Shown here: in pieces, positions 1,453 through 13,929 of the stretch
Layout of the letters: every line of letters begins with the position of its first letter
Position numbering within the stretch: the stretch's first letter is position 1
Origin: Desulfobulbales bacterium
GTDB taxonomy: Bacteria > Desulfobacterota > Desulfobulbia > Desulfobulbales > Desulfobulbaceae
Length of the DNA: 64,000 bases
Reading direction: 5' to 3'
Assembly: GCA_038205495.1 (NCBI GenBank)
Contig: JBBRBT010000003.1
Span: forward strand, 26,787 to 90,786
Program-made: the position numbers and the translations under genes
Notes under the pieces: model-generated
Database searches by the model: none
Told to the model about the DNA's origin: nothing
What the model saw: the letters and a program-made list of their open reading frames with translations, nothing else

Positions 1453-3237
1453 CTACAGGTGCATGGTATCGGCGGAATAGAGGTATCGTTTTATTTTATG
1501 GGTTGCGGTCTTGATAAAAGGCTCTCGCCTTTCCAGCACCCTTGAGAGCCGTGCCGAGGGTGACAGCTGCTCATTCAGTGCAGTTCGCATCTCTTCGAAG
1601 ACCCCTGCAATGTATTGATGACGCTGGGTGCGATTCTGTCCCGAGGTTTTACTGTCGATGAATTCATAATCGGGATACACCCAAGCCTCAAGCATGCCTC
1701 GATTTTCCACCACCAGCGACTCCACCACAAAGGGAAAAGAATTCACTTTATGCTCAATCGCCTCGGGGTAGACATTCTCACCGTTAGAGAGGACAATAAC
1801 CGATTTGGAACGCCCTTTGATAAACAGATTCCCAAAAGCATCGAGGATCCCCAAGTCGCCGGTCTTGAGCCAATCGTCTTCGGTAAATGAGTCTCGAGTC
1901 GCTTCCGCATCGTTGAGATACCCTAGCATGATGTTCTGCCCCCGGGCCTGAATCTCACCGATCCCGGTTTCGGGGTGGGGATCGCCGATCCGTATTTCCA
2001 CACCGGGAACAGCTTTGCCGGTGGAACCGAGACTGACCGTTGTATCGCCATGGGGGCCGCCGGACAGCAACGGGGCCGCTTCGGTCAGCCCATAGCCAAC
2101 CAGAAAAGGAAAGCCCGCATCGCGGAGAAAGATTTCCACCTCAGGATTCAAAGCTGCACCGCCGATACCCATCAGTTGAAGACGATTGCCAAAAAACGCG
2201 GTCAGCTTGGCGCCTATCTTCCGATAAATCATTTTTCGGCTCATATTGAAACGACAGAGGAACGTGAGCATCTTACTTTTCTCAACCGCCGGCAACACCC
2301 GCTTCTTGAAGATTTTCTCGATGATCAGCGGCACCACTAGCATGACATGCGGCCCTTCCCGCTCGCAGATCTTCTGCAGAATGGCGGGAGTCGGCGTCTT
2401 GCCCGCATAGACGATCCGGCAGCCCCGCAACAACGGCAGAAGAAAACCCACCGTGAATTCGTAGGTATGGGAAACGGGCAGGACTGAAAGGAAAATCCAC
2501 TCCTCAGCGATGCGCATAACACCGCTCGCTGAGTAGGCATTGGCGCAGAGATTGGCGTGGCTGAGCATAACCGCCTTGGAAAAGCCCGAGGTACCCGAGG
2601 TGTAAAGAATAGAGGCCAGATCGTCCTTGTTCACCACGGGAAACTCAAGCTGTTCCTCACGGGCCTGCTCGCCGAACTGCTCCAGGGCCTCGGCAAGATA
2701 TGCGCTGAATGGCTGGAGGTCAATCAGCCCGGTATCGTCAAGGTAGTCATCAAGGGTGATGACCCGTTTCAGTTGTTTTTTGAAATCGTAGATTTTTTCA
2801 ATCTGCCGTTGGGTGAGAAAAATGACGTCACAGTGCATCTCCCCGAGAATGTGGTGAACATCTGCCTCCGGTAAATCGGGAAAAATGGGCACGGCACTGG
2901 CCCCGAGACGCACCACTGCCAGATAGGCGGTTCCCCAGTTGTGGGAATTTTCACCCAGCAAAGCCACTCGGTCACCGCGCTTAACACCGCCGCTCCGGAG
3001 ATGGGCAGCAAGGGCAAGTATTCTTTCGTGGAAGGTCTTATACGAAAGCGGTTCTTCCAGGGCCATGCCGATAGCCGGCAGGTGGCGGTATTTACGGCAG
3101 CTGATATCAACCAGATCGTTGAGCGTCGCTGCATGTTCCTGAATCACCGGGAGGTGCTCCACGAAGTCTTCAGCACGGATACTCTCATGCTGCGCGTCCT
3201 TGCTGCTGCGGTCAGTTGTTGCTGCTGGCGTCTGCAT
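1453..3237 (-). CDS. fadD: Long-chain fatty acid--CoA ligase (AMP-binding)
   Basis: YTSGTSGFSK, GYGLTE, TGDLG and GRSK adenylate-forming enzyme motifs. Confidence 0.85.
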   Translation of the reverse strand: MQTPAATTDRSSKDAQHESIRAEDFVEHLPVIQEHAATLNDLVDISCRKYRHLPAIGMALEEPLSYKTFHERILALAAHLRSGGVKRGDRVALLGENSHNWGTAYLAVVRLGASAVPIFPDLPEADVHHILGEMHCDVIFLTQRQIEKIYDFKKQLKRVITLDDYLDDTGLIDLQPFSAYLAEALEQFGEQAREEQLEFPVVNKDDLASILYTSGTSGFSKAVMLSHANLCANAYSASGVMRIAEEWIFLSVLPVSHTYEFTVGFLLPLLRGCRIVYAGKTPTPAILQKICEREGPHVMLVVPLIIEKIFKKRVLPAVEKSKMLTFLCRFNMSRKMIYRKIGAKLTAFFGNRLQLMGIGGAALNPEVEIFLRDAGFPFLVGYGLTEAAPLLSGGPHGDTTVSLGSTGKAVPGVEIRIGDPHPETGIGEIQARGQNIMLGYLNDAEATRDSFTEDDWLKTGDLGILDAFGNLFIKGRSKSVIVLSNGENVYPEAIEHKVNSFPFVVESLVVENRGMLEAWVYPDYEFIDSKTSGQNRTQRHQYIAGVFEEMRTALNEQLSPSARLSRVLERREPFIKTATHKIKRYLYSADTMHL

Positions 3238-11179: not shown

Positions 11180-11929
11180 TTATTCGCGCACGGATTCTTT
11201 GATCTGCAAGGCCCCCACCTGAACCGAAGTGGAGGGCGGCAATGCCGTCCCGGCGGGCGGATCGTTGTCCTCTGCTTTCTTATCCGGCTGGTCGATCGTG
11301 CCCGATGATGATATCGAAGCAAGGGGTTTGATGAAGATTTGTTGCGTGGGTTGGGTCTGGGAGGGTTTCAGCGTGGTAGCCAGAGGCTTTTCTTCGAGAT
11401 GACGACGGAGCGAGAACAGCAGCAGTACTAAAAGACCAAGACCCAAGAGGCAAAACAAGAGCCACGGGCGGGGCCATCGCTTCAGCCGATATCTCGTTAC
11501 AGCCAGAGGCTGTACCATTTTCTCGGATTCGACCGGCGCGGGTCTCTGCGGAATGATTACTGGCTCTTGTGTCACCGTCTTACCGACAATCTTGGCAACA
11601 AGCGCCTCCGCCCCTTCCAGGGCCTTCTTTTCCTCGGCCAGACCGGGCACATCAATGGCGATCAGCTCAATATCCTGATACAATTTACCTGCCAGGGTAT
11701 ATTCCTCCATCGCGACACAAGCCCTGGCCTGCTGCTGCAGTTTTTCCACCCGCGCCTGAAGCTGAGCCAATTCCCGAATCAGTGCATTTTTTTCTTTGGC
11801 GTCGAGGTCAGCACTGAGTTGACGGCACAGAAATCGGGCCTCAAAAATCCGTCCCTCCTTGATCCTGGAACGGATAAGGACGGACGGATTCTCAACCGGA
11901 GATGCAGATTCAGGCTTGCTTGCAGGCAT
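11180..11929 (-). CDS. Hypothetical single-pass membrane protein with helical/coiled N-terminus
   Basis: Helical charged N-terminal half, TM segment 'WLLFCLLGLGLLVLLLF', low-complexity C-terminus. Starts 15 nt after the upstream small ORF. Confidence 0.6.
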   Translation of the reverse strand: MPASKPESASPVENPSVLIRSRIKEGRIFEARFLCRQLSADLDAKEKNALIRELAQLQARVEKLQQQARACVAMEEYTLAGKLYQDIELIAIDVPGLAEEKKALEGAEALVAKIVGKTVTQEPVIIPQRPAPVESEKMVQPLAVTRYRLKRWPRPWLLFCLLGLGLLVLLLFSLRRHLEEKPLATTLKPSQTQPTQQIFIKPLASISSSGTIDQPDKKAEDNDPPAGTALPPSTSVQVGALQIKESVRE

Positions 11930-11944
11930 CAATATGTCCCCGCG

Positions 11945-12106
11945 TTAAAGGAAGGTCTTCAACACCGCATAGACAATCAGCCCCGTACCTACGGAGCTGT
12001 ACATCAACAGTCAGGGGAGACAATCCCCGCCTGACCGTTTCAAAATAAAGGTAAGGGTGGTAATCCCGGCCAGGATCGCCACCCCGATAACGAGCAGTTC
12101 TTTCAT
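11945..12106 (-). CDS. Candidate small membrane selenoprotein (53 aa, CxxU): MKELLVIGVAILAGITTLTFILKRSGGDCLP-U-LLMYSSVGTGLIVYAVLKTFL
   Basis: GGGGAGG RBS 4 nt before ATG 12106. In-frame TGA at 12013-12011 after C-L-P. Frame stays open through a second hydrophobic helix to TAA 11947-11945. SECIS-like hairpin follows the UGA. Confidence 0.75.
11978..11999 (-). promoter_or_regulatory. Bacterial SECIS-like element
   Basis: CAGCUCCGU-AGGU-ACGGGGCUG: 9-bp stem with one G-U pair, starting 11 nt 3' of the UGA, G-containing apical loop. Confidence 0.7.
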
Positions 12107-12129
12107 GATTCCTCCCCGAGGGGGAAATC

Positions 12130-13929
12130 CTACCCCCTTATTTTCGCATCTTTTTTCTTACGCAACCGAATGGCCTTGGGGGTGATCTCCACCAATTCGT
12201 CATCATTGATGTAAGATATACAGTCTTCAAGACTCATGTCAATGGGAGGGGTCAAAACAACCGCCTCATCGGATCCTGAGGCCCGCATATTGGTCAATTT
12301 TTTACCCTTAGCCGGATTGACGATCAGGTCGGCAGGACGGCAATGTTCGCCGATGATCTGCCCGGGATAGGTATCAAAACCGGGACCGATAAACAGCTTA
12401 CCCCGCTCCTGAAGATTGAACAAGGCATAGGCCACGGTGGTGCTGGGTTCCTTGACGATAATGACCCCGTTCATGCGATTCTGGATATCCCCGGCATACG
12501 GGCCCCATTCGGAGAACACGTAGTTCATCACGCCCATGCCGCGCGTGTCGGTCATAAAGGCCGAACGATAGCCAAGCAGACCGCGGGTGGGCACCTTGAA
12601 TTTCATCCGGGTCATCGATTTTTCCACCTGCATATCGAGCATCACCCCTTTGAGCTTGCCCAATTTTTCAATGACCACCCCTTGATACTGCTCATCCACA
12701 TCCACGGACAGCTCTTCGTAAGGCTCCAGGGTTTTGCCGTCAACCTGGCGCATGATGACCTGGGGCTTGGTCACCTGAAGTTCGTAGTCCTCACGACGCA
12801 TCTTCTCAATGAGAATGGAGAGATGCAGCTCGCCGCGCCCGGAAACCCGGTAGCCGACCGCATCGGTCAGCGGCTCGACCTGGAGGGCGACGTCGGCCAG
12901 CGTCTCCTTGGCCAGTCGCTCTTCCAGATGGCGGGAGGTGACAAACTTTCCGTCCTGACCGGCAAAGGGCGAATCGTTGGGAATAAAATTCATGGAAATG
13001 GTCGGCGGATCGATCTCAATCAGCGGCAGGGGCCGCGGATTGAGGGGATCGGTGAAGGTGACACCAACCGTGACATCTTCCATACCGGCAACCGCAACAA
13101 TATCTCCGACCATGGCGCTTTCAATCGGCACCTTCTGATCGCCGCAGAACCCGAAAATTTTATTGATCCGCACCGGCACGATGGAGCCGTCACGGCGGGA
13201 GACCGCCAGAGGGGTCCGCAGAGTCAGGGTCCCGTTCGTGACCTTGCCGATACCCAAGCGACCGAGGTAGGGCGAATAGTCGATGGTGTTAACCTGCAGT
13301 TGCAGCGGGGCATCAGCACTGCCCGATGGAGGCGGCACAAATTTCACGATCATTTCCGACACCACATCCATCCCGGTTTCGGGAGTTATCGGTGTGTCCG
13401 GTTCGGCCACCGCATATCCGGCCTTGGCCGAGGCATAGACCACGGGGAAATCGAGGATATGGTCCGGTGCATCGAGACGGTCGAGCAAGCCGAAGACCTG
13501 ATCCACTACCCAGTCGCAACGGGCCGCCGGTTTATCTATTTTGTTGATCACCACCAGGATGGGCAGACCGGCGGCCAACGCCTTCTTGACCACGAAAAAG
13601 GTCTGTGGCATTGGTCCTTCCTGGGCATCGACCAGCAGCACGGCACCATCGGCCATGCGCAGCACCCGCTCGACCTGGCCGCCAAAGTCGGCATGGCCGG
13701 GGGTGTCGATGATATTGATCTTATATTCCCCATAGGTATATGATCCATTTTTCGAGGCAATGGTGATACCCCGTTCGCGCTCAAGATCCATGGAATCCAT
13801 AAGCCGCTCCGCCACCTGCTGATTGTCGCGAAACATGCCGCTATGCCGGAACAACTGGTCGACGAGGGTGGTTTTCCCATGATCGACATGGGCGATGATA
13901 GCGACATTACGAATATACTTCTGTTCCAT
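12130..13929 (-). CDS. typA: Translational GTPase TypA/BipA
   Basis: [44 protein letters not shown] and C-terminal DDELVEITP motifs. Confidence 0.97.

Follow-up and report, generated by a model that had tools for sequence, protein, structure and literature searches.

Does the TGA codon that interrupts a very short reading frame behind typA end a peptide, or does it encode selenocysteine (Sec)? The question arises from a minus-strand locus in the window, i.e., the whole 64,000-nucleotide stretch of Desulfobulbales DNA analyzed here, for which the first-pass annotation had proposed a 53-residue membrane selenoprotein. On direct reading, every element of that frame is present: a gene of 53 codons (11945..12106) opens with an ATG at 12106, closes with a TAA at 11947-11945 and contains one in-frame TGA at codon 32. 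It is preceded by a Shine-Dalgarno word, GGGGAGG (12111..12117, minus strand), which ends 4 nt ahead of the ATG, and 33 of 35 loci at genus level have a comparable word ahead of the start codon. The TGA (12013-12011) completes a C-L-P-U motif (TGT-CTC-CCC-TGA, 12011..12022, minus strand), the family form of which is C-x-P-U, and 21 sense codons separate it from the TAA. As had been described, readthrough would yield a second helix and fill the space to the next gene, an uncharacterized 250-aa ORF on the same strand (11180..11932) that starts 12 nt past the stop. This ORF matches no Pfam or NCBIfam family, and its homologs follow the 53-codon gene at 35 of 119 loci. A promoter-like TTGACA-18-TATCTT is present at 12213-12242 (minus strand), ~105 nt ahead of the ATG and within the 3' end of typA, and 19 of 34 loci from the genus show one like it; it may be the gene's own promoter or a mere reflection of typA codons.

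The case for Sec insertion begins with the RNA that follows the TGA. A 9-bp hairpin with an AGGU loop (11978..11999, minus strand) starts 11 nt past the UGA, just as the first-pass annotation had it, and its loop starts 20 nt after the UGA. The window hairpin has a folding energy of -14.9 kcal/mol (z = -3.2), and 1 of 200 shuffled sequences is as stable. Among 34 sequences of the genus, synonymous change is lower inside the hairpin (pS 0.385) than outside it (0.64-0.72). In the 47 loci found by homology, 85% of cells are paired as against 40-56% in slid controls, the GG of the loop is invariant, and compensatory (double) changes are seen at five of the nine stem pairs, the accompanying covariation shuffle test being one that ignores the relatedness of the sequences; the covarying stem that had been anticipated across homologs is thus seen. 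We additionally applied our own implementation of the consensus model given in section 5 of PMC13188914, which is passed by 167 of 191 loci, 138 of them with the loop at a distance of 19-21 nt from the UGA; the test is permissive, as 62 of 150 ordinary TGA stops (from 1057) pass it at any spacing and 9 at 19-21 nt. Further, the selD gene of the host genome (G000), which itself contains an in-frame TGA, has the same loop spacing of 20 nt as the window gene. By these sequence features, the hairpin is very likely a SECIS element.

The codons beyond the UGA offer a separate line of evidence. In the 34 genus sequences (one with a deletion was set aside), the codons ahead of the UGA have a pN/pS of 0.51 and those beyond the hairpin 0.44, with 0.23 inside the hairpin itself; once the true stop is passed the ratio is 0.99, and the shifted frames give 0.8-1.5 over longer segments. 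Counting from the UGA, the true stop is reached after 19-25 codons in all but one of 156 distinct loci (after exactly 21 in 120 of the 156), and after 32 in that one. The codon stretch +12 to +20 encodes hydrophobic residues, and none of the 156 loci has an in-frame stop there, as against 88 and 18 of 156 in the two shifted frames. In terms of these substitution and frame patterns, the codons past the UGA evolve as protein. Nearly all homologs examined keep TGA at codon 32, usually as part of C-x-P-U, with TAA or TAG never found there, and they also keep helix 2, both in line with the first-pass annotation. Contigs from metatranscriptomes (two runs of one study) span the gene across the UGA in relatives; because strand, transcription and translation cannot be read from them, they were left out of the support for readthrough.

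Inspection of the host genome, which is 83% complete, recovered selA, selB and selD above curated cut-offs as well as a tRNA-Sec (selC); the absence of Sec genes, which had been named as grounds for abandoning the proposal, is therefore not what is observed. Across the genomes with the gene, selA was found in 93 of the 96 tested, and the remaining three have tRNA-Sec, two of them with a full selB. Conversely, four genomes lacking selA (G552, G608, G610 and G622, one of them a single contig) also lack the gene, and the two of these additionally tested for selB and tRNA-Sec have neither. All four belong to one genus (g277) and thus probably represent a single event. This genus probably corresponds to cable bacteria, judging by a long-loop variant of the protein in common with named records, and two other members of it keep their Sec genes, an apparent loss of the Sec trait inside one genus. 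The converse dependence does not hold, as selA is present in 36 of 40 gene-negative genomes tested (16/20 and 20/20), which indicates that the gene is dispensable in many sulfate reducers. Carriage of dsrA does not separate gene-positive from gene-negative genomes, being found in 45 of 46.

G000 additionally possesses a second tRNA with a UCA anticodon (L002:1496-1593, minus strand, contig C12), with an 8-bp acceptor stem, a 4-bp T-stem and a U discriminator, adjoining a gene that we take from its sequence to be TerC-like. It also has two cysS matches above the cut-off, one of them within an 809-codon frame at C4:78995-80380. The second tRNA resembles the selC* tRNA-Cys opal suppressors described in the sections of PMC5389517 covered here.

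Two readings of the UGA other than Sec need to be weighed against these observations. That it is decoded as Cys, by way of such a selC*-like tRNA, or as Trp, would draw on the 8/4 fold and U discriminator of the second UCA tRNA, on the two cysS matches and on one database entry (P0015) that shows Trp at the site. However, P0015 also translates its terminal TGA as Trp, which marks it as an artefact of gene calling under code 4; 56 of 156 homologs genuinely terminate at a TGA; and the residue aligned with the UGA in orthologs is Cys, which speaks against Trp. As for Cys, no selB* was seen in G000, and the SECIS geometry is the same as that of its selD, so we regard Cys or Trp decoding as very improbable; the most that Cys insertion might do is serve as a fallback in some genomes. 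The alternative that the real product is the annotated 31-aa peptide, with the hairpin acting as an intrinsic terminator or some other RNA element, accords with the presence of such products in databases and with a scanner that flags the hairpin as terminator-like. Yet a T-rich tail is found in only 48 of 190 loci, selection of the protein type continues after the hairpin, the frame stays open in step across 156 loci, and the orthologs with Cys are full-length genes of 53 aa. Frames read in antisense are interrupted in 113-198 of 216 loci. A stop-terminated peptide consequently seems to us the most improbable account of all those considered. Taking the conserved UGA and hairpin together, we estimate a probability of roughly 0.95 that they direct the insertion of Sec and that the gene encodes a selenoprotein.

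How widely is this predicted selenoprotein distributed? A single-protein search matched 47 of 61 relatives, the host's own genome included (34 of 36 within the genus), and in all 47 a single in-frame TGA falls at the corresponding codon; the conservation of the gene among relatives is well beyond chance. A profile search matched 224 of 251 Desulfobulbales genomes; among the matches listed, 150 of 150 have one TGA, and 10 genomes from the 81 further matches were inspected. The gene, mostly single-copy in Desulfobulbales, is close to core in this order, cable bacteria included. In a second order, that of G097, inferred from named records and the tree to be Desulfovibrionales, the profile matched 54 of 201 genomes, of which 49 were judged real holders; 51 matches in 48 genomes reach E < 1e-4, all with TGA, while six of seven weaker matches proved on inspection to be chance and one to be real. 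A phylum-wide draw of 401 genomes gave 13 real matches, all in the two orders, with two weak matches recognized as chance after inspection; because 16 candidates were scored per genome, the remaining genomes of this draw count as not found rather than absent. The closest homologs among named records are from Desulfobulbus species, and other named holders comprise Desulfopila, Desulforhopalus, Desulfogranum, Desulfurivibrio, Ca. Electronema, Ca. Electrothrix and Desulfonatronovibrio. One member (L141:2461-2628, minus strand) is in a metagenome-assembled genome labelled Gammaproteobacteria that also has selB; it groups with the second-order sequences, and may reflect transfer, a mislabel or misbinning. 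A search of plasmids gave no match.

Searches with DNA patterns permitting TGA, TGC or TGT at the Sec position recovered TGA in all 118 family loci from genomes and, with the same type of pattern, in all 115 family loci from metagenomes; of the 120 loci obtained in each case, two (from Chloroflexi) and five, respectively, were set aside as chance after inspection. As these patterns also fixed the residues coded by the hairpin, divergent Cys forms would escape them. Cys homologs at position 32, which the first-pass annotation had suggested looking for, do exist but are rare: two (L220 and L225, from both genomes of family f4) were found, as against several hundred Sec forms. Both have TGC at the UGA codon, are full-length 53-aa genes and are placed among the Sec forms by a tree whose resolution is weak. 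Both have lost the hairpin and neither passes the SECIS model, and the hairpin-coded YGSxGxG of the Sec forms is replaced by NAAIAAA. This replacement of the hairpin-coded residues once Cys is present indicates that the apparent protein motif is in part dictated by the RNA. In L225 a gene of the mtnA type lies directly next to the Cys ortholog and in L220 one gene further, judging from antisense ORFs; in L220 a 23S rRNA-IVP-like gene (1659-2345, plus strand), below its cut-off, runs over the ortholog's stop codon.

The family also includes aberrant copies. Three loci (L224 in G506, and L240 and L241 in G719) keep the UGA and hairpin but are missing the Cys of the motif; L240 and L241 are extra copies in a genome that carries three overall. 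In L226 (G050) the frame beyond CTPU is not hydrophobic, and in L223 (G569) a stop lies upstream; these two are apparently decayed or mis-assembled copies. A longer and more basic loop characterizes members from named cable-bacterium records and related ones (L130, L147, L156, L169, L174, L217-L219 and L221), several of which have an Arg two residues after the Sec.

The gene neighbourhood was examined in 119 loci. The description of the gene as lying directly behind typA is borne out in the window, where typA (12130..13929, minus strand; TIGR01394 above the cut-off) serves as context and its end is separated from the ATG by 23 nt, but the link is lineage-specific, being present in 76 of the 119. 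A gene of the IF-2B family, which we take to be of the mtnA type, lies downstream in 20 of the 119, and in other lineages der/dnaX or a convergent mazG is found beside the gene. These neighbours are housekeeping genes that vary by lineage and thus indicate no functional partner. Genes for metal resistance or transport do not recur among the neighbours inspected, and mer genes are absent from them.

Insights into what the protein might do come from its predicted structure. The AlphaFold2 model, with Sec modelled as Cys, has helices at residues 2-25 and 30-52 and is of moderate confidence (mean pLDDT 69.5, pTM 0.37). Together with hydropathy and charge counts, it points to a first transmembrane helix with a Lys/Arg-rich end (12032..12103, minus strand), and it places a second, lying mostly beyond the UGA, at 11951..12019 (minus strand). 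The earlier placement of CxxU in a loop between two helices accordingly stands with respect to the two predicted helices, but in the model C29 and U32 are at the start of helix 2, which the motif caps rather than lying free in the loop. C29 and U32 are invariant in the 41 alignment rows found by homology, and C-x-P is present in 150 of 156 distinct loci, on many of which it was imposed by the search pattern. The loop has a mean of 2.2 Lys/Arg residues, compared with 0.6 and 0.8 at the two termini. Basic loops of membrane proteins face the cytoplasm according to the positive-inside rule, and the motif is therefore predicted to be on the cytoplasmic side.

Section 7 of PMC13188914 names CxxU as a redox motif. 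On the strength of the motif and the model, we lean somewhat towards the protein being a membrane selenolthiol redox module, in which Cys-x-Pro-Sec would serve as a reversible switch. In the scheme that we envisage, SelB would, as in established SelB-SECIS biology, bind the G-containing loop 20 nt past the UGA and Sec would be inserted; the 53-residue product would then fold as helix-loop-helix, with Cys-x-Pro-Sec at the start of helix 2 on the cytoplasmic face of the membrane. Here the selenolthiol/selenenylsulfide pair might carry electrons, two at a time, between a thiol or persulfide partner in the cytoplasm and an acceptor in the membrane, which could be menaquinone or a membrane complex that the protein joins as a small subunit. 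Such action would be like that of a free-standing AB module of DsbB/VKOR with its sidedness reversed. The specific version in which the protein is the stand-alone, cytoplasm-facing Sec half of a DsbB/VKOR-type unit, working as a dimer or small subunit and linking thiol or persulfide to menaquinone, is drawn by analogy and we consider it speculative. A homodimer prediction on both Cys orthologs scored 0.02, which counts neither for nor against a dimer. The idea that a Tyr at +4 is an essential quinone contact is weakened by an Asn at +4 in both of them.

Other functions for the same selenoprotein are conceivable. Its Cys and Sec might bind a soft metal or metalloid (Cu+, Hg2+ or As) or an Fe-S cluster, making it a chaperone, sensor or transporter accessory. 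According to section 7 of PMC13188914, most transporter-type selenoproteins are linked to metal handling, and a MerT-like C/SxxU protein is listed there. Moreover, the three copies that have Sec without the motif Cys fit Sec as the key ligand, while they are left unexplained by a redox pair of two residues. Against metal binding stand the lack of recurrent metal-resistance or transport genes among the neighbours inspected, the absence of any match above chance to MerT, FeoB-associated or other families, and the distribution of the gene. Resistance genes are usually patchy, whereas the present gene is found almost throughout one order, mostly as a single copy, and we hold a metal-binding role to be rather unlikely. 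Less likely still is that the locus senses selenium status, with a one-helix product of 31 aa made when selenium is scarce and the two-helix product of 53 aa when it is replete, their ratio switching a partner or downstream translation. Such a sensor would account for the retention of Sec, almost without replacement by Cys, across two orders, for the gene being absent rather than Cys-converted where the Sec machinery is absent, and for the selection that the N-terminal 31 codons experience on their own. However, Cys in two members that are still conserved as 53-aa genes removes the selenium switch there, and the downstream gene is often convergent (Nudix or mazG), so the gene is not the leader of a fixed operon.

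Is the family then a known one? The window protein has no match in Pfam or NCBIfam (June 2026), and scans of 41 or 68 members against Pfam/NCBIfam, or of the Cys forms against Pfam, likewise give no match above the cut-off, the members showing only scattered weak hits of the transmembrane type (best E 0.001). PDB sequences yield no hit at E <= 10, the best Foldseek match has an E of 7.6, VIA-align reaches a best Z of 7.3 to generic hairpins, the ESM Atlas queried with a Cys ortholog returns unnamed clusters (best 0.86), and Rfam has no real match. In the protein collection the Sec form is present solely as 31-aa stubs, and a search of 50% clusters matched two stubs, the rest being one code-4 artefact and four long hits attributable to chance. 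Of eight stubs from RefSeq (NZ_) records, five are absent and three present, with names that are hypothetical/uncharacterized or mislabelled. The expectation that gene callers miss this gene is borne out by databases holding 31-aa stubs or nothing. The families that Haft and Tolstoy described in 2025 are said to be included in the table of the 119-family selenoprotein catalogue and in NCBIfam, and the work of Deng et al. from 2026 reportedly holds unvalidated candidates. That catalogue (PMC13188914, Table 1), compared by way of NCBIfam and Pfam models and of its descriptions, contains no fitting entry; a few of its entries have CDD or PANTHER models only, outside the NCBIfam and Pfam scan. Likewise, no description of the family was found in the abstract and part of one supplement of BSepDB (PMC13326102) or in the sections of SelCysML (PMC13745706) covered here. 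In the part of PMC12013277 considered, the deep-Sep method was applied to three Desulfobulbia genomes and reported nine new families, this one not among them; by its own statement it may miss selenoproteins without Cys homologs. On a comparison covering Pfam, NCBIfam, the 119-family catalogue and the literature searched, none of which yielded a match or a description, the family is probably undescribed, in agreement with the first-pass annotation, which did not recognize it.

These results would add an apparently undescribed selenoprotein family of unusually minimal membrane architecture, which is near-core in one order but which protein databases either lack or hold as a 31-aa stub. It points to a blind spot, in that discovery methods lean on Cys homologs, as stated in the sections of PMC12013277 considered, and there are almost none here; since the Cys forms are so rare, the family would escape pipelines based on Cys/Sec pairs. 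The two Cys orthologs constitute a natural experiment, in which loss of Sec appears to have freed residues otherwise fixed by the SECIS. Should the speculative reading as a stand-alone DsbB/VKOR half be true, the protein would be a missing component of the energy metabolism of Desulfobulbales, cable bacteria included, overlooked because gene callers stop at its UGA. Its small size and conservation make it directly testable in cultured sulfate reducers.

The family shares several features with known systems. Like the bacterial CxxU selenoproteins catalogued in Table 1 of PMC13188914 (GrdA PF04723, SELENOW-like PF10262, AhpD-like and DUF1858), it combines a UGA, a SECIS in the coding region, CxxU and Sec/Cys pairs; unlike them, the whole protein is a two-helix hydrophobic hairpin of 53 aa, with two Cys forms only. 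Among the membrane selenoproteins in the same table, the MerT-like one (PF02411, C/SxxU) is comparably small with a motif of the CxxU type, whereas PF02411 is absent among the families listed for 68 members (25 of 28). The deep-Sep families DG, DW and DF, from Desulfobulbia/Desulfobacteria, share the host group, the computational mode of prediction and an unassigned function, but, as given in the text of PMC12013277 considered here, DG has GUxG and DW has GxU, DF has no TGA homologs elsewhere, and all three have many Cys homologs; the 41 members do not match the NCBIfam models of these three families.

A parallel in layout is offered by VKOR (PF07884) and DsbB (PF02600), both of which, in the portion of PMC4555120 covered here, carry CxxC within a module of two paired helices, on its helix B. 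As with their AB module, the model of the present protein has a helix, a short loop and a CxxC/U that starts the next helix. In 15 VKOR and three DsbB sequences, CxxC likewise stands at the start of a helix after a helix-loop with similar spacing, often with a Tyr at +4; this spacing is shared by VKOR sequences of the host's own phylum. Profile comparison by hhalign nevertheless gives a probability of 6% against whole VKOR, 23% against the module alone and 1% against DsbB, and 3 of 40 controls with shuffled flanks match the score obtained against whole VKOR; VKOR and DsbB themselves were not found in six order members of the draws. The likeness is best treated as an analogy, as homology was not significant. 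While VKOR and DsbB are four-helix bundles of AB and CD modules with shuttle cysteines, the present protein is predicted to have two helices with one Cys and one Sec, the Sec being in place of the second Cys and the basic loop predicted to face the cytoplasm.
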